A stretch of DNA of 64,000 nucleotides from a virus (IMGVR_UViG_3300042914_003763:53114-117113); one strand, 5' to 3'; counted from the stretch's first letter, positions 31,597-58,816 are shown. Numbers and translations are program-made. The notes: generated by a model not told the origin, from the sequence alone.

Positions 31597-32688
31597 TTAA
31601 TAAACTAATTGCATTTTATGTTTGAAGATATTAACAGCAGTAGGTTCAACTGTTACAAGGAATTTCTTATCTGGAATACCTGTTTCTTCATCACCGTATT
31701 CAGTAATTACACACTTCGTAGTAGTTAATACCTTAGTTATATCACCATAATTCAAACCTTCAACTATAAATGAATCTAATAAATCATAGTTACTATTAAC
31801 TCTGAAACTTTTCTTACATAATAAATCAGCAGATACAATTTTGTTTAATATTAAACATTCTGCTAACTTATTATCTTCTAATATTTGTTGAATAGTAACT
31901 AGAAAGTGTTGTTCGTTGTAATCTAAGTTCATATCTTCAATTAACTTAGATGGTAAATCTTTGTGCATATTAACTTCATTAATTAAAGAAGTAATAGCAT
32001 CAATAGTTAGATAACTTAACTTACCTATTGTCTCAAGTAAGTCGTCTCTGTATTCTTGATACAGTAATAAATCATCCACAATCTCAAATATTGCACTATC
32101 AGGTAATCTATCAAACTTTTTATGATATCTAATACGTCCAGGTCTATTAAGTAAGTTATCATCAATTCGTAATTCATTAGTCGTAAACAAGAACAATCTC
32201 TTATGTACATTAGTGTTAATACCATCTAATAAAGATAACACTTCGCTAACATTATCATCTTCTTCCTGATCGTATATCTTTTCAAATTCATCAAAGAATA
32301 CAATAAGTTCCTGTTGTATTTCGTTAATAAAGTCAGGCATATTAATAAATCTTGCATTAACTATAACAACAGGTAATTGTAATTGATTACAAATCATCTT
32401 AGCCGTAACAGATTTAGATGTACCTTTCATTCCTGAAAGTAATACACCTACGTTGTTATCTACTTTATTCCAAGTTGTAACCACCTTATCTATAAAAGGT
32501 GTATTTAGATCATACAATTTAGAAGGTAAAATAAAAGTTTCTGATTGCTTATCTAAAAACAACCCAAACTTACATTCTTTTAATAAATAAACACCAGCTT
32601 CTAATTCATTTATTTCGGTGTTCTTGTTGTTGTAGAAAAAAGAATTACCACTTAATTGCCATACTTTAGTCATGATATTTATGTCCAA
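31597..32688 (-). CDS. AAA+ ATPase
   Basis: GMKGTSKS, FFDEFEK, LSLLDG, LLNRPGRIRY. Confidence 0.85.
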   Translation of the reverse strand: MDINIMTKVWQLSGNSFFYNNKNTEINELEAGVYLLKECKFGLFLDKQSETFILPSKLYDLNTPFIDKVVTTWNKVDNNVGVLLSGMKGTSKSVTAKMICNQLQLPVVIVNARFINMPDFINEIQQELIVFFDEFEKIYDQEEDDNVSEVLSLLDGINTNVHKRLFLFTTNELRIDDNLLNRPGRIRYHKKFDRLPDSAIFEIVDDLLLYQEYRDDLLETIGKLSYLTIDAITSLINEVNMHKDLPSKLIEDMNLDYNEQHFLVTIQQILEDNKLAECLILNKIVSADLLCKKSFRVNSNYDLLDSFIVEGLNYGDITKVLTTTKCVITEYGDEETGIPDKKFLVTVEPTAVNIFKHKMQLVY

Positions 32689-35708: not shown

Positions 35709-35984
35709 CTATCTCACTTCTTCTAATGTTACAGTAAGTTCTTTTTGTTCTAATTTAACTCGATAAGATAATGCAGTAGAATAATCAGTTGTTATTACAA
35801 TAGCTCTACCATTAGTAAGTGCTTCTTGAATTATCTTATCGGCAACATCGTAATCATATTTCAATACACTCATTAGTACCTCAACAACATACATAGCAGA
35901 TAAACTACTATCTTCATGTAGTATGATATGCCAGTTGTTATCGTAGTTTGGTTTGATAGACAACAACTCAAATAATGTTTGCAT
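35709..35984 (-). CDS. clpS: ClpS-like protease adaptor
   Basis: WHIILHEDS..SAMYVVEVL...A.KII.EA...GRAIV...ELTVTLE. Confidence 0.72.
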   Translation of the reverse strand: MQTLFELLSIKPNYDNNWHIILHEDSSLSAMYVVEVLMSVLKYDYDVADKIIQEALTNGRAIVITTDYSTALSYRVKLEQKELTVTLEEVR

Positions 35985-36356: not shown

Positions 36357-36727
36357 ATGTCATCAATACCTGCTTGTAGTAATGCCTCTTTGTAAATGTA
36401 CAACTTATTGTAAGTTGTACGTAACTTCTTAGATGTCTTATTCCACCACAAGTTAAACTTAGCTTCTTGTTCCAAGATGGTTTCTTCTACATTTTCAACA
36501 TAAGCTAAGTTAACATAAGTTTGTTTATGTTCCTTCTGTAAGTAGATATCATTAATAATCCTCTCACATTGTCTGATGATAGCTTTAGCTTCACTAACTG
36601 TAGTTACTTCAGGTAGTTCATCTGGTGACGGACTATCAATTTCAGCATTGATAGGAATATTAATAATTCGTTGTTTTATGATTGGTTTATCTTTAAGCAT
36701 AACAATTAAAAAGGGTGCTATTAACAC
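36353..36727 (-). CDS. Hypothetical protein
   Basis: ORF; probable start MLKDK. Confidence 0.45.
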   Translation of the reverse strand: MLIAPFLIVMLKDKPIIKQRIINIPINAEIDSPSPDELPEVTTVSEAKAIIRQCERIINDIYLQKEHKQTYVNLAYVENVEETILEQEAKFNLWWNKTSKKLRTTYNKLYIYKEALLQAGIDDI

Positions 36728-36751
36728 CCTATAATAAACTAACTAAATCAA

Positions 36752-37408
36752 TTAAACAGCACTACTTCTGGTGCGTTTGGTGCGTCCTGTTGTTGTTACT
36801 TCTGGATCGCTTTCATCGGTTGTTACTTCAGGTTGAGGTTCAATTACTTCACTTTTTTCTACCTTTTGATTATCTTCAACTAAAGGTAGTTCTTCACCTG
36901 TTACTATCGGTTCACTAACATCTTCACCTTCAACTTCAAACTCAACTTCATCAGGTTTAAGTGTTTCGATGAGTGCAGTTATTCTTCCACCATTATCTCG
37001 ATCACCCCAACCACGTTCTTTCTCTGTGACCCAATGTATACCCCGTACACAATCCATCACATCGTAGATTTTGAGATCATCTAATTCGATTAACTGTTTC
37101 GCTTTATCTGCAACTTCAGCATCAATCAGTAAAGATAAAGCGGTAATTAATACCAACATTTTAGCTAAGTCTTGCCTATCACTTTTTGATGGTAAAGATG
37201 ATAATACATAATCCTTAATGTCAATCTTTCTAGCTACTGCTGTACCAACACGTCTACGGCTAGTAGTAGCCATCAACTCGAAATTTGCATCTTCAAAGTC
37301 TTTCTTAGTTCTAGCAATAATATCTTCTGGAACTCCATAACTTCTCATGTTATCCAGTGCTACCAATTGTTCAGGACGTAACATAATTTCTTCTCTGTTA
37401 ATGGACAT
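36752..37408 (-). CDS. Hypothetical protein with acidic low-complexity tail
   Basis: 218 aa; GGAG RBS; PEVTT repeat. Confidence 0.6.
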   Translation of the reverse strand: MSINREEIMLRPEQLVALDNMRSYGVPEDIIARTKKDFEDANFELMATTSRRRVGTAVARKIDIKDYVLSSLPSKSDRQDLAKMLVLITALSLLIDAEVADKAKQLIELDDLKIYDVMDCVRGIHWVTEKERGWGDRDNGGRITALIETLKPDEVEFEVEGEDVSEPIVTGEELPLVEDNQKVEKSEVIEPQPEVTTDESDPEVTTTGRTKRTRSSAV

Positions 37409-37469: not shown

Positions 37470-37856
37470 CTAACTCATATAACCACTATAACCGCACCAA
37501 ATTGAACTTATTAACTCACCCCTATTGGATAATCGTTTAGGTTTTTGGTTCATCTCGCTGATATAACGATTATAATGGTTTAACTGTATCTCGTACAATG
37601 TTGGTATTTTTATATCTCTAACTCGCTCAACCCTCATCTTATGCCAAACTAACTGAACTCGAAGTGGTATAAACTCTTTCATATACCAATCGCATATTTT
37701 TTCTACCTCTTGTTCTTGTTTTCGTTGTTGTTTAATTAAGCTAACATGATATGCAAATTGAATTACAGCTTCTTCTTCAATTGGTTTCAATATCATGATA
37801 GATGGAAACTTCATGTAAGCAGCATACTCAGAAGTAGCACTTGGTATTTGAAACAT
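37470..37856 (-). CDS. Hypothetical protein downstream of E1
   Basis: 128 aa ORF. Confidence 0.5.
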   Translation of the reverse strand: MFQIPSATSEYAAYMKFPSIMILKPIEEEAVIQFAYHVSLIKQQRKQEQEVEKICDWYMKEFIPLRVQLVWHKMRVERVRDIKIPTLYEIQLNHYNRYISEMNQKPKRLSNRGELISSIWCGYSGYMS

Positions 37857-37909: not shown

Positions 37910-38695
37910 TTAGGCTATTGTAATTGGTTCATCAATATCCATACCTGTAATAATTTGATCACCAATCGGATGTCTCCACGCCCATTCACATCTAGGTAAC
38001 AATTTACCGTATTCCATTAAATGAAAGAATACATCGTACCCAAACTGTGATGTACGTTCGTTAGCGGCTAGAGTTTGAGGTTCACTAACATGATTAGTAT
38101 CACAACTACCACCCACTCTAGGCATATTACCAATACTCATATCTATCATATTTGGATACAATATGCGCGGATCTGAACCATATAAAATTTTATTATGATT
38201 CATGGTAGTAACACATTGTCCGAAAGTTGTTGAGTTACCCATATCAATCAATGTCCAATTTTTTGGCTTATTCAAAGCTTCATTGTTATTAGGATCGCCT
38301 TTCAAATACTCCCAAAATAACTTACGTGTAGGATTGTTATCTACACATAAGAATATTAGAGTTTGTGTATAGCTACTTAACTTTTCAATCAGTAAAAAAT
38401 GTACAGAAGATATGTTATTAACATAACTGTTATAATAATCAAAATTGCGTGATCTATTACTTAACATACCGTAACATTCTGCCAATACTTTGGCTTTAGG
38501 TTTGCCGATATCACGTGCATAAAACATCTGACGTGATATGTTTTTCTCTTCAACTACATCTTCATCTACTAAAAAAATAGCAGGATTAATATTCTGACTA
38601 ACAATGTAGTTACATAACTTAGCTAGTAACCTACTACCATTACCACCACATCCTATTATGACAATATTAAAAAATTCTTTTTTTAACTTAATCAT
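37910..38695 (-). CDS. ThiF/E1 ubiquitin-activating-like enzyme (PRTRC ThiF type)
   Basis: IVIIGCGGNG, VDEDVVEEKNISRQ, KPKAKVLA, LCVDN..TR, IDMGN..FGQ, putative catalytic GSC. Confidence 0.9.
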   Translation of the reverse strand: MIKLKKEFFNIVIIGCGGNGSRLLAKLCNYIVSQNINPAIFLVDEDVVEEKNISRQMFYARDIGKPKAKVLAECYGMLSNRSRNFDYYNSYVNNISSVHFLLIEKLSSYTQTLIFLCVDNNPTRKLFWEYLKGDPNNNEALNKPKNWTLIDMGNSTTFGQCVTTMNHNKILYGSDPRILYPNMIDMSIGNMPRVGGSCDTNHVSEPQTLAANERTSQFGYDVFFHLMEYGKLLPRCEWAWRHPIGDQIITGMDIDEPITIA

Positions 38696-38704
38696 TGTAT
38701 TCTC

Positions 38705-39544
38705 CTAAAGTATTTCTAAGTAATTACCTTCTGTCAACTCAATGAAATATGAATCGCTATCTGGTTCATTATCAGTTAGATAGTAACTGCGATTAGTAAA
38801 ATCCAAATAGTGTCGTTCTGGACGTTCATCCAACCATTCGTAACTTATATCTATGTAGTATGAAATATAATCTTCATCCTCATCCTCATCATCATCAGCA
38901 AATACTAACTTATTAGGACTCCACTCTCTAAGTAACTGCTCAACTGTAGGATGAACAACTTCACCATTTATATACAACGACGGTCTGTAATCGCCGTTTC
39001 TAATACAATCCCAAAAATTGTTGTAGGTTTTGTTAATATTTAACTCATCAATCTCTACAGTACCAGTACACCAACTACCTACTGATCTTTCAACATTACT
39101 CAAAGATAAAGCAACGGCTTTATCTTCATGTTCAGTTAAGAAGTAATAAGTATTTCCATCAAAGATCATTAGATGTTCAGGTATATCTCTTTCGACAAAT
39201 CCTATAAATTCACTTTGCTTAATTGCACTTTTCCTTTTACAGTTATCATTACGATAAACATTAATACCACCTATACAATCATCGTATAAACGGTATGAAC
39301 AATCCATACAATTCCGCCAATAAAAATCAACAAATGACTTATCGTAATACTTTAAGTTAACGTTAGTTAATGCCTCCATTTGGAACATGATTATACCGTC
39401 ATTATTGATATCTACATAGTCTTCTTCTGTTACGTAATCATCTTCTTCATCACACCATACTGTCTTTCCTTGGTACTCACTGGCGAATGAATACGCAACG
39501 AAAGCATTTTTACAATTAGCAGGTAGAATAAGTTCCTTTCTCAT
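38705..39544 (-). CDS. Putative prokaryotic E2 (Prok-E2 family D-like) conjugating enzyme
   Basis: LSNV....GSWCTG and FW...NGD motifs; lies between JAB and E1. Confidence 0.6.
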   Translation of the reverse strand: MRKELILPANCKNAFVAYSFASEYQGKTVWCDEEDDYVTEEDYVDINNDGIIMFQMEALTNVNLKYYDKSFVDFYWRNCMDCSYRLYDDCIGGINVYRNDNCKRKSAIKQSEFIGFVERDIPEHLMIFDGNTYYFLTEHEDKAVALSLSNVERSVGSWCTGTVEIDELNINKTYNNFWDCIRNGDYRPSLYINGEVVHPTVEQLLREWSPNKLVFADDDEDEDEDYISYYIDISYEWLDERPERHYLDFTNRSYYLTDNEPDSDSYFIELTEGNYLEIL

Positions 39545-40455
39545 TACACAACTCCTTCTTTTTCTAACTTAGCTATTGCTACTTTAACTTTATCTAATCC
39601 AAACTCTTGAACTAAATATCGCATTTCATCTTCAACACCCCAAGCACTGAAACTTCTTGTGTCAAACAATTCAAAACCATAATCATAATAATTAACTACG
39701 GCTTTCTTCTTACTGCCTTTAGGTAGCCAACTGTACCAATGTTCAGTAGAGGGTTGTACAACTTGATTTATGTATTGCCTAATTACTTGATGTACGTTGT
39801 TATGATAATCAGTTTCAACGATCATAGCAACGTCAGCATTGAAGCTTATATCGCTAACAATTCCAGATATAGCCGAATCAGGTAGAAAAAAGCGTTTATT
39901 CTGTTTATTCTTACCATCATTACCTACTACAGTAAAACACCATTTATAGGTGCGATTAACTAAGTCAATATTACTGATTACACAGTAACCTTGCTTAATG
40001 TGCAACTCATCCTTATCATCAACACCAGATGGATGTTTGATTTGCATCGTATTGTGACTATGAATATGCCAGATATTATCATAATTTGGTAGGTCAGCAG
40101 GATACGACAATGATCTACCTGTCTCTAAATCAACACATGATTGATAATTATAATTGGCACTACCACCTGTAACCATCTGAGTAGGAATGATAACTTTCCA
40201 GTCATTACGGTATTCATCAAAAATGATTCGAGAATGCACCTCTAAGTCTTGTTCGGCATAATCAAGGAATAGTGTCATCAACTTATTCCATAAATCGTTA
40301 GGAACTTTAGGTAAATTAGGATTAAGTTCAAATATTCCCATTACATAATCATCTATACCATCTTCATAAGGTTGATATACAAGATGATTACCATAGTAGG
40401 TTTCAAGTTGTGCTATTGTTTCACCAGTCTTCAATCTTAAATTTGTGTTTGTCAT
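39544..40455 (-). CDS. JAB/MPN+ metalloprotease (Ubl peptidase)
   Basis: Catalytic E in DLEVH, IPTQ.VT, HIHSH...PSGVDD.DE Zn motif. Confidence 0.88.
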   Translation of the reverse strand: MTNTNLRLKTGETIAQLETYYGNHLVYQPYEDGIDDYVMGIFELNPNLPKVPNDLWNKLMTLFLDYAEQDLEVHSRIIFDEYRNDWKVIIPTQMVTGGSANYNYQSCVDLETGRSLSYPADLPNYDNIWHIHSHNTMQIKHPSGVDDKDELHIKQGYCVISNIDLVNRTYKWCFTVVGNDGKNKQNKRFFLPDSAISGIVSDISFNADVAMIVETDYHNNVHQVIRQYINQVVQPSTEHWYSWLPKGSKKKAVVNYYDYGFELFDTRSFSAWGVEDEMRYLVQEFGLDKVKVAIAKLEKEGVV

Positions 40456-40478
40456 GATATGTCTCTAATTAGGTGAGC

Positions 40479-40511
40479 GAAAAAGAAAGGGGCGATCTAA
40501 TGACCTACCCC
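40479..40511 (-). terminator. Possible terminator between the Ubl genes and JAB
   Basis: GGGG/CCCC stem followed by a U-rich tract on the - strand. Confidence 0.45.
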
Positions 40512-40527
40512 TATTGATTACATCATG

Positions 40528-40830
40528 TTAGCCAGCAACACCCGCAGAAAAGCTCACTGCATAGCGTGTACCATTAACGTACTTGCTATTGACATCAATA
40601 GCTACACCATTAGCAACAACAGTATATTCACGATTGATATCAGTACCACTTAATTTAGCAGCTGATTCAATAACATCTTTCACTGTTACTTCATCTTTAA
40701 TTTTAATTTCTCTCATATCAGCGACAGAGAATTTAACGTTAACTACAGCTTCACCATTGAACTCAGTTGTAACTTCTTGTTGTTGAGAAGCTTTAGCAGC
40801 CGCAGCGAATAAACGGGAAAATAAAGACAT
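40528..40830 (-). CDS. Ubiquitin-like (beta-grasp) protein, copy 2
   Basis: Start re-set to ATG after GGAG; TVKDVI..VANG; C-terminal AGVAG; beside JAB-E2-E1. Confidence 0.78.
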   Translation of the reverse strand: MSLFSRLFAAAAKASQQQEVTTEFNGEAVVNVKFSVADMREIKIKDEVTVKDVIESAAKLSGTDINREYTVVANGVAIDVNSKYVNGTRYAVSFSAGVAG

Positions 40831-40923
40831 AACGTACTCCAATTAAATAGGGTAGAACATTGTTATAGTAATCAGTTACGTGAGGAAACACTATGTAACC
40901 GTCTAGTTAACCGATTTAATTAA

Positions 40924-41220
40924 TTACCCAGCGATACCAGCAGAAAAAGAGATAGAATATTTAGCACCGTTAACAGGTTTGCTATTAACATCTACAACTA
41001 CACCGTTACATAATACAGTGTACTCACGTGATGTGTCAACGTTAGCTAGTTTAGCTTGAGATTCTATAAGTTGTTTTACCGTAGTAGCATTACCTACTTT
41101 AACTTCTCTTTCATCTGCAACTGAATATTTAATCTTGACAGTAGCTTCACCATTGAACTCAGTTGTAACAGTTGTATCAGGATTAGTAAAGTTCTTAAAC
41201 AGTTTGGCAAATAAAGACAT
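40924..41220 (-). CDS. Ubiquitin-like (beta-grasp) protein, copy 1
   Basis: Paralogue of 40528; TVKQLI..LCNG; C-terminal AGIAG. Confidence 0.78.
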   Translation of the reverse strand: MSLFAKLFKNFTNPDTTVTTEFNGEATVKIKYSVADEREVKVGNATTVKQLIESQAKLANVDTSREYTVLCNGVVVDVNSKPVNGAKYSISFSAGIAG

Positions 41221-41300
41221 AACGTACTCCAATTAAATAATCGTATTAGTTAGTTACTTGAGGAATCACTAGTAACATAGTTAAGTTAACTTACGATCCA

Positions 41301-41891
41301 TTATCGTAGATAACCTATCATACCGTTATCGTATTTAGCGATACCTAACATAACCCACAAGTTGATAGTCTGATTATCAATCATATGTTTCAGTGCTTCA
41401 GGTTTAATATTATGAGTTTTACATTGCTTGTATTTTAATAATGCTTGTTCTGTTTCAGCACTTATTGTAATATCCAACCATTTACTTATTGCAACAAGTA
41501 AAAGTAACTTATCTGTATCTTTGTTTAACCATACACAACCAGGGGCTTGGCCATTGTAATGACCGTAAGTTAAATCTCTAGTAAGGTAGTTACTGATATA
41601 TCTATCGTAACCACATTTAGATGACTTAACTTGAAAACCTATGTAATGATCTCCCTTCTTAACTGCAACATCTATTTTTAAATAACAATCTAACTTACTA
41701 CCTGATTCAGTAACCATTACTTTATCTACATCAAGTAGTTGTAATAAGTTACATATGGTAGTTATTGTTTCTTGCTCTTTAATCACATTCTCAACTTCAA
41801 CAATCCAATTATGTTCAATCTTATCAAGGTATTTGGTTATTTGTTTCTTTGATAGTGTTAATGGTTTTGTTGTTGTAATACCGTATGTCAT
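41301..41891 (-). CDS. PD-(D/E)XK-fold nuclease-like protein
   Basis: KIDVAV...IGFQVKS. Confidence 0.55.
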   Translation of the reverse strand: MTYGITTTKPLTLSKKQITKYLDKIEHNWIVEVENVIKEQETITTICNLLQLLDVDKVMVTESGSKLDCYLKIDVAVKKGDHYIGFQVKSSKCGYDRYISNYLTRDLTYGHYNGQAPGCVWLNKDTDKLLLLVAISKWLDITISAETEQALLKYKQCKTHNIKPEALKHMIDNQTINLWVMLGIAKYDNGMIGYLR

Positions 41892-41927: not shown

Positions 41928-41966
41928 AAAAAAGGAAAGCTTACTAGCATTAGTTGCTAGTAAGCT
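41928..41966 (-). terminator. Intrinsic terminator ending in the RGRTAGAAAAA motif
   Basis: AGCTTACTAGCA/TGCTAGTAAGCT 12-bp stem. Confidence 0.7.
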
Positions 41967-42008: not shown

Positions 42009-42623
42009 TTAATTGCTGTATGCAGCTACCTCTACTTGTTGTGGGTTGTTAATGTAATTGATTATCTCAGTTTCATTCATTAGATATTCTTGATTGTAAA
42101 CTACCCATCTGTTACCAAGATGTTTCCTAAGAACTACATAATCTTCATTATTATAGCTAAACCTAACACCTTCTCGAACTGAAGTTAGAAAAACAGTAAC
42201 GGTATCTGGTAATGGTGCAATTATTTTTTCTACCTCACTTATAGTTAAACCACCATAACCAATACCGGGATAAGGTAATGCAACAGTCTTAGTTGGATTA
42301 GCATTACACCAACTAACTAACATTTCCACTGATTGCTTAATTAAAGTTGGATCAGAAGCATATTTGTAACTGTTTTTTGTTTGAAATGCTCCAACTAATT
42401 GACCTTCATAATCAACTACAATTAACCCGTATCTAAAATGCTTATTTCGTTGTTTATCAATTAACCCACCAAACTGTTGTTCGATACCAGGATATCGCAA
42501 CTTAACTGACTTAGCACTACCAGCACCCATAATAAGTGCATTACGATTGTTAAGTTCTGAATTAGTAGTCGCTAAATAAAGATCGAACTTAGTATCGAAC
42601 ATATCACCAATTCTTAATTGCAT
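42009..42623 (-). CDS. Macro-domain (ADP-ribose) protein
   Basis: GDMF, ATTN, MGAGSA, FQTK, LPYPGIGYGGL. Confidence 0.8.
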   Translation of the reverse strand: MQLRIGDMFDTKFDLYLATTNSELNNRNALIMGAGSAKSVKLRYPGIEQQFGGLIDKQRNKHFRYGLIVVDYEGQLVGAFQTKNSYKYASDPTLIKQSVEMLVSWCNANPTKTVALPYPGIGYGGLTISEVEKIIAPLPDTVTVFLTSVREGVRFSYNNEDYVVLRKHLGNRWVVYNQEYLMNETEIINYINNPQQVEVAAYSN

Positions 42624-52759: not shown

Positions 52760-53225
52760 TTTCTAGAAGTTGATAAAGGTACTTCTAGCATAAACCGTTA
52801 TTGAAGGCAATAACCTGTAACTTATCTTTGCTTCCTTATAGTTACAGTTTTGTTACTTGTCTTGGTGTAACAATAACCTAGACTTGTTGCTAACTACGTT
52901 AGTAGCGTACTGTGAGAAATACAACCTCTACAGTAATAAGTTTAGTTAGGATATTTCTAATCACATTTGTCGTGATTCTTATTGCAATAAGAAGAAATAT
53001 CAATTAGCATTTGTCGCTACTTAACTAATTAACTTACCGTAAGTCATTCCTACATACATTAGTGTCATCTAATTAGTTACTGTAGTTATAACTAATAGAT
53101 CAAGTGACTAGAACACAACTAATCTAGTATCATAAGTTGAAGAAGATAACACCTCTAATGTAATAACGTAATTAACTTAGTTTTACATCTAGCATTACTG
53201 TAACTAGATAACCTTATCACAGGTA
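52760..53225. other. ORF-free array of tandem and nested hairpins (candidate ncRNA or origin)
   Basis: Many adjacent inverted repeats, e.g. CTAGAAGT/ACTTCTAG, GTTATTG/CAATAAC, CTGTAACT/AGTTACAG, GATATTTCT/AGAAATATC. Confidence 0.5.
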
Positions 53226-53230
53226 GAAAA

Positions 53231-54583
53231 TCAGATATCTTGACGGTAAATGCCACCAGTGGCAGCACTTATCATCTTGAGATGATCGTTACTGCTATTT
53301 AGGATGAATGAGTGCAACTTAGCACCCTTTAGATCCCCAGGTTTAACACTAGTTGCATCGTCTTCACCATCGTTTACAACAATGATGTGACGATCTCTTT
53401 TGGAAATAGCACCTTTATTTTCAAGTGCTATCTTATCAAACTCCTCTAACGCTTCTTGAATAGCGTTAGCTACATCAGTTCCACTCTTGTCGAAAGAGTG
53501 TTTTATGATCTTTTTTCTATAAAATTTATCTATATTACCATCATCAGGCAATAGATAGAATTTATGACAAGAACTCTCAAAGAAAGAGAAATTTAACCAA
53601 CATTCACCACGTTTAACACGCTTGAGAATGTTGTGTATTATACCTATAGCTTTCTTTGACTTGCTATTAGTCTGCATACTACCTGAATCATCAACAATAA
53701 GCGTAACAAACGGCATTTTAAACTCTCGTTTGTATTTTTCATCAACTCTTGCTTCATTGTTGATGACACGATATGCCATCATTGGTAATGGGTTTACAAG
53801 TTCTAATGGGTTTATGCGATGAAACTCATCAAAACCCTTAATACTACGCGCTATTTTAACATCACCTTGATCATCCTTGATTAATTTAGATGAAGGCTTA
53901 GTTTTTATGGCTGATATCTTGTCCATTTCGTTACTAGCACGAAGAATATCGCGCATAACATCGGACTTAACAAGACTTTCAATGTTATAATTATCATCAT
54001 CTTTTAGATCAAGAAGTTCTTTATCTTCTTGATCTAATTTTTCAACAAGTTCAATCGCTTCGTTGATTTTTTTAGCTTCTTCTCTAACCTTCCCTTCAAA
54101 GGTAGAAAAAATGGGAATGGTTGGTGAACCACTACTATCATTACTACCAGATGATGAATTAGCTTCTTCACCGAGATATTTAATTGTATTAATTGCTTTT
54201 TCAAGTGGGGTAGTACCTGGAATACCATCCAGGTTTAATGATTGAAGAAAGGTTTGGATATTTTGATGATAGCCAACATCTTTTTCTACCCATGCTTGTT
54301 TAGCGATTGAGTAATTTTTTGTATAATTAGAATCGAAATCGTTTGGGTTATCGGGTAATGTGTAGTCACCATCATAATCCGGTTCTAACACTTTATTAAA
54401 GTTGTTAGAACAGTGATCAAAAATATTACTAGCGGATACAAATGATCCACCACTAGCGATATTACACAAATCTTCTACTAAGTCAGGAGCATATGCCTCT
54501 ACTCCTAATTCTTTAGCTAATTTTCTTACTTCATCAGCAGATGGATGAAGGTAACTAGGTGAAGGGATAGTTCTAATCGTCAT
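53231..54583 (-). CDS. VWA-domain protein (ViaA/CoxE-like)
   Basis: MIDAS DDSGSM, SGTD, VVNDGED. Confidence 0.85.
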   Translation of the reverse strand: MTIRTIPSPSYLHPSADEVRKLAKELGVEAYAPDLVEDLCNIASGGSFVSASNIFDHCSNNFNKVLEPDYDGDYTLPDNPNDFDSNYTKNYSIAKQAWVEKDVGYHQNIQTFLQSLNLDGIPGTTPLEKAINTIKYLGEEANSSSGSNDSSGSPTIPIFSTFEGKVREEAKKINEAIELVEKLDQEDKELLDLKDDDNYNIESLVKSDVMRDILRASNEMDKISAIKTKPSSKLIKDDQGDVKIARSIKGFDEFHRINPLELVNPLPMMAYRVINNEARVDEKYKREFKMPFVTLIVDDSGSMQTNSKSKKAIGIIHNILKRVKRGECWLNFSFFESSCHKFYLLPDDGNIDKFYRKKIIKHSFDKSGTDVANAIQEALEEFDKIALENKGAISKRDRHIIVVNDGEDDATSVKPGDLKGAKLHSFILNSSNDHLKMISAATGGIYRQDI

Positions 54584-54673
54584 ATTTGACTATTTTTTTT
54601 TGGTTATTAATGAGATAGAAAAATAATAGTAGTTAAGTTAGTATGTTGCGATTAACTTAACTACTAATTAATA

Positions 54674-55855
54674 TTAGAGCGATTCAGATCCACACATGAT
54701 TGAATTATCACGTTCATTAGCAGCCTTAACTACGAGATCCGCGCATTTCTTCTTAACGTTGTTAATACGTGATGTTAACGAGTCTGGATATTTACCGCTA
54801 TTACTAATCTCTGTCTCTAATGATTTAGCAAGTTTCCATATTATAGCGGCGTTAACTAATTTTCCCTTCTCAGGGTTATTAAGTTTATGGAAACCTCTAT
54901 CAATTCTTCTTTCAAATTCGTTTATTTTTTCTACCTGAATATCGTATTGTTTCTTGCGTTCCATCTCTTCTTCTAGACCTGCTAGTAGAGATGTATCCCA
55001 ATACGATAAGTAGTTCAAAATTCGTAAATCTTCCATATCAGCAGTATTAGCATCACGAAGATAAGCTGCTGATTTGATAAGTTTTTGTGTCCATTTATAT
55101 GCTCTAGGAGATATAATACTCCCGTTTTCTCCTGATTTTTGTGCTAGATGTTGGAGTAGACCTTTAATGGAACTACTTAGGATAATACTTGACACATCTT
55201 CACGCATCATATCAATTTCCGTTATATCAATAGCAGATACGTCATGTTTAACTAGTTCATCATCATCGAGAAGAGCATAATCTGCTGCATCATGACTATC
55301 CCAGCCATGATTAACAACCAGAAATCGTTGTAAAAAGGCATCGTATGAATTTTGTTGAATCTCAGGTAGAGATTCTTTTAGTTCAATTGGGTTAAGATTT
55401 GTAGCAGCAACTAATACTTTGTTAATTGACTTTATTTCTTCACCACTAATATTTAACATACGATTAGTGATGACAGCTTTCAATACAGATAACGCGTTAA
55501 AACTCGCATCTAACGCTTCTTCAAAGAAAAACTTGTGTCGTTGTAATACAGAAGCAGCAATATTATAATGTGCTTCTGTTAGGTCGTATTTTTCACCCTT
55601 CAAAGTACGACCAATTGCGCCACCTTTTATGTGACTAGCTGATGTTTCAGGGTCACATTCAAGCATACCCTGAGATCCTTTTATTGCTTTAAACGAACTA
55701 AGAATCATTTCAGTCTTACCATAACCACCTCTACCGTAGTAGAGGATTGGAATACCGGAAAGAATAGATAAAGATAAGGAATCAGAAAAACTATCGAATT
55801 TAACAAAACCAGAGTTAGCAAGTTGAGCGTTGATAGAAGATTTGATTGTAGACAT
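54674..55855 (-). CDS. MoxR/RavA-family AAA+ ATPase
   Basis: GRGGYGKT, FFEE, AATN, AFLQRF, ISPRA; start re-set to MSTIK. Confidence 0.82.
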   Translation of the reverse strand: MSTIKSSINAQLANSGFVKFDSFSDSLSLSILSGIPILYYGRGGYGKTEMILSSFKAIKGSQGMLECDPETSASHIKGGAIGRTLKGEKYDLTEAHYNIAASVLQRHKFFFEEALDASFNALSVLKAVITNRMLNISGEEIKSINKVLVAATNLNPIELKESLPEIQQNSYDAFLQRFLVVNHGWDSHDAADYALLDDDELVKHDVSAIDITEIDMMREDVSSIILSSSIKGLLQHLAQKSGENGSIISPRAYKWTQKLIKSAAYLRDANTADMEDLRILNYLSYWDTSLLAGLEEEMERKKQYDIQVEKINEFERRIDRGFHKLNNPEKGKLVNAAIIWKLAKSLETEISNSGKYPDSLTSRINNVKKKCADLVVKAANERDNSIMCGSESL

Positions 55856-55886
55856 GACTCGTACTCCAATATGATATGTGGTTAAC

Positions 55887-55915
55887 AAGTTAGTTTAATG
55901 ACATAACTTAGGTCA
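55887..55915 (-). ncRNA. H-type pseudoknot motif, copy 2
   Basis: UGAC-CUAAGUUAU-GUCA-UUAAAC-UAACUU. Confidence 0.6.
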
Positions 55916-58029: not shown

Positions 58030-58224
58030 CTAATTTCTGAAGTATCTTTTCAGATACTTTTCAATCTTTAAATAACTGACATTAGGATCAGCTTTTAAAG
58101 ATTGATAATGTTCTACTGGTACATGGCATACTAAAACCACATTACCAATAGAACCTAATATAGTTAATGATGGGTAAGAGTTAGGATCGAAATTATCACT
58201 AACTCTCATGATTATGTGTGGCAT
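58030..58224 (-). CDS. Small protein (weak subtilisin-propeptide/I9-like pattern)
   Basis: SLKADPNVSYL. Confidence 0.4.
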   Translation of the reverse strand: MPHIIMRVSDNFDPNSYPSLTILGSIGNVVLVCHVPVEHYQSLKADPNVSYLKIEKYLKRYFRN

Positions 58225-58735
58225 TATTGCTATCTAAGCTATGATCTGGAAGTGGTTTCTTATTCCACTTTGTATTTACACTTTCACCACTGTTACGATC
58301 TATTAGAACCACTTCTACATTATCGTTATCAGTTGTATCAATTTCGATTTGTAGTTTGTTTATGGTGTTGTTGTAGATAGCTATTTTTTGATTACTACTC
58401 TTTTCATCACCAAACCAATACAGTTCAGGATTTAAAACATATCCTCTAGCTCGTTTACAACCATAAGGATATTTAAGAATATAATTTTTATCTACTAATT
58501 TTTTAATAGCAGCTTTAATATTACTTTCATTGAGATTAAAATATTTAGCTAACTTTTTAATAACAGAAGTTGACACATAACCCTCATTGAATTTAACTTC
58601 TAACTGAATATAGTTAAATACTTTTACCCATAAAGGATAATCAGGATCGTCATGTATTCTTAATAATGCACGTTTTCTTGTCTTGAGAAAGACATTAAGA
58701 TCGTCACTTTCTCTCATATTGGAATTATTTGTCAT
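58199..58735 (-). CDS. Winged-HTH protein, RepL-like
   Basis: LAKYFNLNESNIKAAIKKLVDKNYI, YVLNPELYWFG; start re-set to MTNN. Confidence 0.6.
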   Translation of the reverse strand: MTNNSNMRESDDLNVFLKTRKRALLRIHDDPDYPLWVKVFNYIQLEVKFNEGYVSTSVIKKLAKYFNLNESNIKAAIKKLVDKNYILKYPYGCKRARGYVLNPELYWFGDEKSSNQKIAIYNNTINKLQIEIDTTDNDNVEVVLIDRNSGESVNTKWNKKPLPDHSLDSNNATHNHES

Positions 58736-58768
58736 AATGGTTAAAGGTAAACGTCTATAACCATTATA

Positions 58769-58816
58769 ATAAGTACGAACCATTAGTACCACTTAGTACG
58801 AACTGTTCGTACTTAT
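58769..58816. promoter_or_regulatory. Direct and inverted AGTACGAAC repeats (operator/iteron-like)
   Basis: AGTACGAAC at 58772 and 58795; palindrome AGTACGAAC-T-GTTCGTACT at 58795-58813; beside a - strand TATAAT. Confidence 0.6.

Follow-up and report, generated by a model that had tools for sequence, protein, structure and literature searches.

What a phage might gain from machinery of the ubiquitin type is the question raised by five adjacent genes on the minus strand (37910..41220) of a 64,000-nucleotide stretch of viral DNA, called the window below. The window runs from base 53114 to base 117113 of a virus genome of 117,113 bp (IMGVR_UViG_3300042914_003763), which has direct terminal repeats and is rated 100 for completeness by CheckV. 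A preliminary description read the genes as two ubiquitin-like proteins (Ubls), a JAB peptidase, an E2-like protein and an E1. All five open reading frames (ORFs) were found where it had placed them, and the motifs it quoted (AGIAG, AGVAG, HIHSH...S..D, NV....GSWCTG, GCGGNG, D.D.V..KN..RQ and GSC) are all present in the translations. Our analysis indicates that the locus is probably a phage-encoded Ubl conjugation cassette of the PRTRC/type-6d lineage in which some parts have been exchanged. PRTRC stands for ParB-Related, ThiF-Related Cassette (NCBIfam TIGR03734-03742), while type 6d is the fourth operon type in the accessible text of Iyer, Burroughs and Aravind (2006; PMC1779556); from domain content we infer that the first maps onto the second.

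The assignment of the E1 (37910..38695, minus strand, 261 aa) is firm. It consists of a single ThiF-type adenylation domain with a candidate catalytic C198, and passes the Pfam ThiF cut-off (50.2 bits against 28.1; E 2.4e-13). Its best NCBIfam match is PRTRC_ThiF (E 1.8e-20; residues 6-232 against positions 9-224 of the 245 in the model), which bears out the proposed likeness to PRTRC-type operons, at a score of 73.3 bits that is about half of the family cut-off of 144.75 and does not reach it. PDB matches at about 1e-4 were to Uba1 and UBA3, in their active adenylation domains, and to MccB, and the Uba1 and UBA3 alignments span the GxGxxG and D.D..E..N..RQ stretches of the ATP site, as in a Rossmann adenylation domain with its ATP-binding Gly motif, Arg finger and Mg-binding Asp. 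A tblastn search with E1 matched 10 phage records, of which five annotated phages were examined: Ralstonia phage Dina, Salmonella phage Arash, Vibrio phage D69 and the Bacillus phages Edson and vB_BauM_KLEB27-3. Across the six phage E1s, including the PRTRC ThiF of Dina, 12 positions are invariant, D119 among them; the Asp of CVDN is invariant in this alignment and S197-C198 is kept in 6/6. The equivalog models for ThiF and MoeB gave only 15-40 bits on E1 against cut-offs of 152-647. In PADLOC, the Rossmann part alone matched 26 'E1-E2' (Cap2) models, weakly (best E 1.6e-8), and the PHROGs matches were to unnamed families only. A genome scan with E1 returned one distant locus, with 25% identity over residues 10-127, in a 502-aa ORF of a metagenome-assembled genome of an uncultured member of the Pseudomonadales.

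There is good evidence that the 303-aa product of 39544..40455 (minus strand) is a JAB/JAMM metallopeptidase. The JAMM residues E72, H132, H134, S143 and D146, with the spacing HxH-x8-S-x2-D, are kept in all five family members, and just four homologues of the protein were found in 5.8 billion clusters. The protein alone had no Pfam match, neither DUF2016 nor Prok-JAB appearing at E <=0.1, and nothing was found for it in PHROGs or PADLOC. The five-member profile aligned by hhalign to the protein in the JAB position of Vibrio phage D69 (probability 95.3, E 2.1e-8, 98 columns); the aligned columns include both halves of the JAMM motif, and the D69 protein itself matches Pfam Prok-JAB at 9.9e-9. 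In the Atlas, the protein sits among Prok-JAB clusters that are mostly viral, the ten best of its matches that carry a family all share family or clan with the best one (Prok-JAB), and its structural neighbours include clusters of PRTRC protein A (TM 0.44).

The E2 assignment is probable, not proven, and is held with moderate confidence. The 279-aa protein (38705..39544, minus strand) belongs to a rare family: HMMER, run exhaustively on 1.84 billion representatives, found 14 relatives. Invariant in 15/15 family members are N150, G156, C159, G161, D185 and three further cysteines, and C90, P122 and H124 are almost so; N150, C159 and G161, which form the invariant N150-x8-C159-x-G161 around the candidate catalytic cysteine, are kept in 9/9 once the proteins of the five other phages are added. 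The protein itself had no Pfam match above cut-off and nothing in PHROGs or PADLOC, and Pfam Prok-E2_D was matched by one of the 15 family members (3.7e-4). By hhalign, the family reached 71.5% against PRTRC protein B of Dina, which matches Prok-E2_D at 1.6e-45, and 84.4% against a profile of the proteins in the E2 position of the five phages; both alignments cross the N...C.G site and the helix after it. In the AF2 model (pLDDT 77), a four-strand meander immediately precedes the N150-C159 loop, in the order seen in UBC folds. VIA-align of this model gave Z values up to 5.0, with E2 or UEV titles on 27 of the 50 rows (Z 3.4-4.7), the top E2 rows having Z 4.7, a root-mean-square deviation (rmsd) of 3.7-4.4 A and 112 aligned residues; other rows are RWD proteins, Atg10 and the Bub E2. 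Just ahead of the UBC-like core, residues 79-102 hold a cluster of four cysteines, C79, C82, C90 and C102 (C-x2-C-x7-C-x11-C), three of which are invariant in 15/15 members and one nearly so. The cluster is absent from the E2-position proteins of the five other phages, and this four-Cys insert is probably a zinc site.

Confidence in the Ubl assignment is likewise moderate. Ubl-a (40924..41220, minus strand, 98 aa from ATG, ending in SAGIAG) and Ubl-b (40528..40830, minus strand, 100 aa from ATG, ending in SAGVAG) are identical at 62 of 104 positions (60%; E 6e-44). Six homologues were found in databases, one of them identical to Ubl-b, and four of the six are nearer to Ubl-b than to Ubl-a. In all eight rows of the family alignment Gly is the very last residue, each protein ending in G-x-A-G and a stop. 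Five of the seven distinct members match Pfam ThiS below its 22.5-bit cut-off (E 0.0089-0.078), Ubl-a at E 0.078 and Ubl-b at E 0.011 with 16.7 bits; the remaining sub-threshold matches are also to beta-grasp families, one relative touching SAMP2 at E 0.1. Prok_Ub was matched by none of the seven, PHROGs held nothing for Ubl-b and PADLOC nothing for Ubl-a. With VIA, residues 24-98 of the Ubl model aligned to ubiquitin, ISG15, MoaD and bacterial BilA (Z 4.5-5.6, rmsd about 3 A, 66-75 residues aligned). The N-termini share a peptide, M-x-L-F-x-x-L-F at residues 1-8, with M1, L3, F4, L7 and F8 kept in 8/8 rows, and a variable linker separates it from the beta-grasp part; it could be a docking or membrane-binding peptide.

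Prediction of an E1:E2:Ubl complex had been proposed as a check in the preliminary description; for an E1 dimer with Ubl-a, complex prediction returned a verdict of 'weak support', with a score of 0.48 against 0.01 for the best control. Among 80 solved complexes 58 attained the mark for this score, as did 2 of 110 mismatched pairs, and only seven of those 80, together with both mismatches, reached it at 0.60 or below. Between runs at least 59% of contacts agreed, and the pLDDT of the partner was at least 63. E1 and Ubl are a textbook pair, and the pass may reflect likeness to solved complexes.

The reading that best fits the cassette as a whole is a rearranged relative of PRTRC without ParB, operon type 6d of Iyer and colleagues. 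The cassette shares with PRTRC the separate E1, E2 and JAB genes, a small Ubl whose terminal Gly is conserved and carriage on a mobile element, as well as the alignment of its E2 to protein B over the N...C.G site and full-length PRTRC_ThiF as the top match of its E1. It differs in that its Ubls are ThiS/SAMP-like rather than Prok_Ub, are duplicated and end at the Gly, in that DUF2016 goes undetected in its JAB protein, and in the order JAB-E2-E1, which is E2-JAB-E1 in all five phage cassettes examined. ParB_N had no match in the complete 117-kb genome, the same search being positive in 11 of 14 control genomes, which agrees with the phage context without ParB described earlier. PRTRC proteins F (alpha-hel2, PF14456) and E (PF19556) had no match among the Pfam-scanned ORFs, that is, 11 + 81 ORFs of the window and 54 elsewhere in the genome, ORFs shorter than 60-70 aa and some at locus borders being left out; a search of the whole genome for PF14456 found no match, and its controls were silent too.

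In each of the five phages, a protein matching Prok-E2_D and then one matching Prok-JAB precede the E1, and the Pfam cut-off was passed by two of the five E2 matches and three of the five JAB matches. Dina carries the entire annotated PRTRC set, ParB excepted, in the stretch seen. The trios of Arash, D69, Edson and KLEB27-3, all large phages that are cultured or deposited, resemble the present cassette in lacking ParB and in having the E1 S-C and the E2 N...C.G, with E1 identities of 28-30% (for the D69 E1, 23% over its C-terminal part); they differ from it in having neither the ThiS-like Ubl pair nor the four-Cys insert. Upstream of the trio, Arash encodes a 72-aa protein ending in TGTKG (L002:102-320), and D69 a 263-aa protein in which TGTKG is followed by five more residues (L003:394-1185). 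Neither protein had a family match or showed kinship to the Ubls described here; they may be the own tags of the Arash and D69 cassettes, one of them needing trimming. In the accessible text on Arash (PMC10585845), Gp246-Gp248 are recorded with 5, 3 and 2 unique peptides by liquid chromatography-mass spectrometry of a particle preparation, and the same preparation contained RNA polymerase, ribonucleotide reductase and many non-structural enzymes. Two prophages with PRTRC cassettes, one of Burkholderia gladioli and one of Phocaeicola vulgatus, have also been published, as far as the accessible parts of those reports go. With the PRTRC set of Dina, these two prophages and the E2-JAB-E1 trios of five phages on record, the novelty of phage carriage implied by the preliminary description was overstated; what is new here is a divergent version with ThiS/SAMP-like tags and a four-Cys E2 insert.

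Three better-known systems invite comparison. Bil comprises the Ubl BilA, the E2 BilB, the JAB BilC and the E1 BilD, in Type I and Type II forms, according to the accessible parts of the reports (PMC10557695; 10.1101/2023.09.04.556158). The present cassette resembles it in keeping Ubl, E2, JAB and E1 as four separate functions, in the use by Bil of thioester chemistry through conserved cysteines, and in having the BilA chain 8tyz_B as one structural neighbour of its Ubl model (Z 4.5). The differences are considerable: BilD is described as having an inactive and an active adenylation domain and a CYS domain, whereas the E1 here is one ThiF domain; BilA is reported usually to require C-terminal trimming, whereas these Ubls need none; and Bil is a host defence system, whereas this cassette is phage-borne. 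The archaeal SAMP/UbaA/HvJAMM1 system offers a likeness in its several ThiS/MoaD-like modifiers, one small E1 and a JAMM peptidase, and SAMP1 (3po0) is among the Foldseek rows of the Ubl model. Sampylation is not known to use an E2, whereas an E2-like protein is present here, and the UbaA equivalog model gave 23.4 bits on E1 against a cut-off of 450. Type II CBASS also has a JAB partner, and its Cap2 models are those matched by the E1 Rossmann region in PADLOC; Cap2 is, in the accessible text on that system, an E2-E1 fusion that conjugates a CD-NTase, whereas here E1 and E2 are separate genes and a Ubl is present. No nucleotidyltransferase family was matched among the Pfam-scanned ORFs.

Several results weigh against a conjugation cassette of this lineage and should be set against the above. 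The AF2 model of the Ubl has a pLDDT of 54, a low model confidence. Foldseek had been put forward as a check, and its outcome was divided: 44 of the 50 rows for the Ubl model are beta-grasp Ubls (SUMO, LC3, MoaD or SAMP1 by title; best E 0.027), but neither the Ubl model nor the E2 model found a match at E <=0.001, the E2 search against PDB and BFVD being topped by unrelated folds. All VIA Z values for E2 and Ubl are below 8, a range that, according to the tool, common arrangements can give. Profiles of the Ubl, JAB and E2 families found nothing among PDB sequences at E <=10. Some direct comparisons by hhalign were also poor: 0.2% for the Ubl family against the Prok_Ub of Dina (PRTRC protein C), 0.06% against the small Arash protein, 0.4% for the JAB profile against PRTRC protein A of Dina and 2.3% for the E2 family against the D69 protein in the E2 position. 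The Ubls most resemble sulfur carriers (ThiS), and two of their relatives bear the JGI label 'sulfur carrier protein ThiS'. One RNA-library run yielded short contigs on E1, E2, JAB, Ubl-b and the upstream gene, and such libraries can hold DNA. Biochemistry was found for neither this cassette nor any cassette of the PRTRC type, and the Burkholderia gladioli prophage paper describes PRTRC function as not yet studied. A literature search, with subscription journals mostly outside it and supplements excluded, found no experimental study of a phage-encoded E1-E2-JAB-Ubl set, and a search on PRTRC combined with ubiquitin-like and phage found no paper. The gene set does read Ubl, Ubl, JAB, E2-like, E1; the word 'complete' in the preliminary description has its limits, since the structural matches behind the E2 and Ubl folds are weak and no E3 is known.

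The arrangement of the genes bears on how such a cassette might work. The stop of JAB shares 1 base with the start of E2 and the gap between E2 and E1 is 9 nt, so that JAB, E2 and E1 are translationally chained. For each Ubl ORF a TTG 12 nt upstream is an alternative start; the ATG starts are the more likely ones because an identical ribosome-binding stretch, with GGAG 8 nt ahead of the ATG, precedes both. Ubl-b and JAB are separated by a hairpin and, after it, a U-rich run (40478..40512, minus strand; fold -14.4 kcal/mol). The energy of the hairpin is unexceptional against shuffles (z -0.88) and the consensus scan did not list it; a role as attenuator is offered as a suggestion.

If the conjugation reading is correct, the following sequence of events may be proposed. 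Both Ubl paralogues are, as their sequences show, made mature, with the reactive Gly last, and are perhaps produced in excess over the enzymes, since they have ribosome-binding sites of their own and the hairpin with its U-run stands between the Ubl and enzyme genes. The single-domain E1, probably a homodimer, would adenylate the terminal Gly and load the Ubl onto Cys198, as family chemistry and the invariant Ser-Cys suggest. From there the Ubl would pass to Cys159 of the E2-like protein and thence to lysines of targets. No E3 is visible, and the four-Cys insert of the E2 might help in the choice of targets. The most likely task of the JAB peptidase is to remove or edit conjugates, since the Ubls do not have to be trimmed. 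The role that we favour, as a guess, is that the cassette modifies host or phage proteins in the course of infection, for host takeover or counter-defence. A more specific version, which we consider rather doubtful, would have a virulent phage running a two-tag, E3-less writer and eraser, in which the zinc-type E2 module and the N-terminal peptide of the Ubls steer the tags to host or replisome proteins; the tagged proteins could, for example, be fed to Clp proteolysis through the ClpS-like adaptor of the phage.

The setting of the cassette is the replication and early-gene half of the genome. Nearly every window gene from about 4.4 kb on lies on the minus strand, with functions in replication and nucleotide metabolism: the products include a DNA polymerase, primase/helicase-type ATPases, single-stranded DNA-binding protein, an exonuclease and RuvC, together with DHFR, ThyX, dUTPase, a ribonucleotide reductase-like protein and a Dam-type methylase. 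The remaining half holds the terminase and large genes mostly without a name. No integrase family was matched among the scanned ORFs of the window and the rest of the genome, and the phage is apparently non-integrating. No deposited phage has a DNA polymerase more than 29.5% identical to its own, and the nearest ones come from Flavobacterium phages.

Among the neighbours is a macro-domain gene (42009..42623, minus strand), a short way upstream of the cassette. In the macro part only, its product matches DarG in PADLOC at 7.1e-10 and scores 35.8 bits on the NCBIfam DarG antitoxin model, far under the cut-off of 250; the protein is possibly an ADP-ribose-removing counter-defence enzyme. A ClpS-like adaptor is encoded nearby at 35709..35984 (minus strand; Pfam ClpS, 38.5 bits against a cut-off of 23), a classical AAA ATPase at 31597..32688 (minus strand), and a ClpP-family protease that may simply be the prohead protease adjoins the terminase in the other half of the genome (G000:C1:2830-3369, minus strand). 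Any connection of tagging with proteolysis is speculation. Farther off, the product of 58199..58792 (minus strand) has a weak match to the winged-helix Pfam cullin neddylation domain (E 1e-4; 22.8 bits against a cut-off of 36.9) and is probably a plain winged-helix protein, and at 53231..55888 (minus strand) the gene of a VWA-domain protein stands beside that of a MoxR-like AAA ATPase (AAA_lid_8). The genes flanking the cassette (41301..41891, 37470..37856 and 36752..37408) had no family match and no PDB match.

Two terminator-like hairpins found by the consensus scan (41938..41966 and 36712..36730, minus strand) bracket the stretch from the 196-aa gene (41301..41891) via the cassette to the 218-aa gene (36752..37408), which is a possible transcription unit. 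A 14-nt motif occurs in two exact copies, one ahead of each Ubl gene (40874..40887 and 41252..41265, minus strand), with six matches at up to 2 mismatches against 1.35 expected; the repeat may simply reflect the duplication of the Ubl gene. Sigma-70-like promoters were not enriched (19 found against 33.8 expected), and no clamp-docking motif was seen by eye at the C-termini of E1, E2 and JAB.

A blastn search with 5 kb against 50,697 phage records gave no match; viral-contig scans with E2, E1 and the JAB and Ubl profiles found no relative, nor did metagenome scans with the JAB and Ubl profiles, although records close to that of the window may not have been among those searched. In lake and freshwater metagenomes, at least half of the sampled words of the cassette were present in 12 of the 22 runs listed, one of which may be the source sample itself; the RNA runs X21 and X22 held almost none of these words and are uninformative either way. 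A 40.7-kb contig from another lake run (X2) extends from E1 through Ubl-b with 19 differences and no gaps, and ends within the Ubl duplication. Thirteen of these 19 differences, spread over a 3.4-kb stretch, crowd within 100 nt (38476..38574, codons 41-74 of E1), which looks like a small patch recombined between strains. Other runs showed 26 coding differences, synonymous and non-synonymous mixed and none a stop, too few for a test of selection. The longest contigs of the E2, JAB and Ubl relatives coincide in size (32,594; 18,619; 12,818), which suggests that these three travel together.

Other uses of these genes have to be weighed against the modification of host or phage proteins by the phage. 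One is that the same enzymology is aimed at rival phages or mobile elements, as superinfection exclusion, much as Bil tags the tail protein of a rival phage. Bil systems are reported, in the accessible text, to attach their Ubl to the central tail fibre of phages, mobile cassettes were proposed by Iyer and colleagues as addiction or protection systems (PMC1779556, accessible text), and PRTRC-type sets are found on plasmids, integrative and conjugative elements and prophages. The carrier here, however, looks non-integrating, and the cassette sits among replication and early genes in a position that is not moron-like; we regard this use as unlikely. Slightly poorer prospects attach to the idea that the cassette is a decoy or eraser of host Ubl immunity, the JAB stripping Bil- or CBASS-type conjugates or the Ubls saturating host E1 and E2, with conjugation of its own secondary. 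The ready-made terminal Gly of the phage Ubls, the fact that the PADLOC matches of E1 are all to Cap2-type E1-E2 models and the DarG-like macro-domain neighbour, suggestive of a counter-defence neighbourhood, all fit this idea; yet a lone peptidase would suffice for it, E1, E2 and two Ubls being retained here with intact catalytic residues, and the PADLOC matches are weak and concern only the Rossmann part. Defence against rival phages and erasure of host immunity share the chemistry of the conjugation reading, and sequence alone cannot separate these roles.

A different chemistry would follow if the Ubls were sulfur carriers, that is, ThiS-like proteins adenylated by E1 that become thiocarboxylates and supply the sulfur for a cofactor or for a tRNA or DNA modification, in the manner of ThiS-ThiF, MoaD-MoeB or TtuB-TtuC, the JAB acting as in CysO/Mec. 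ThiS is the only named family that the Ubls touch and names two of their relatives, E1 weakly matches the ThiF and MoeB equivalog models, and missing steps could come from host enzymes; a pure sulfur-carrier role is nonetheless very unlikely, because an E2-like protein with an invariant Cys, for which such pathways have no use, is chained to E1 and because no rhodanese, cysteine desulfurase, PP-loop thiolase, ThiG or MoaE was found at E <=0.001 among the scanned ORFs, while E1 is a lone ThiF domain of 261 aa without a rhodanese domain and its ThiF and MoeB scores fall far under the cut-offs.

Returning to a conjugation cassette of the PRTRC/type-6d lineage, its interest lies in the side on which it would act. 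Going by the accessible parts of the literature, experimental demonstrations of bacterial Ubl conjugation are so far confined to host defence (type II CBASS and Bil) and to Bub operons, whose role is unknown. Its value is tempered by the carrier being an uncultured phage; genetic tests would be possible with the related trios of cultured phages of Salmonella, Vibrio and Bacillus, and the compact set of five genes, with mature tags and no accessory proteins, is convenient for reconstitution in Escherichia coli. The two-tag writer and eraser, if true, would mean demonstrated Ubl conjugation used by a prokaryotic virus for host takeover. PRTRC/type-6d operons have been catalogued since 2006, and the use by a phage of a stripped-down version would, if true, add a viral side to them and could reveal what PRTRC-type cassettes act on.

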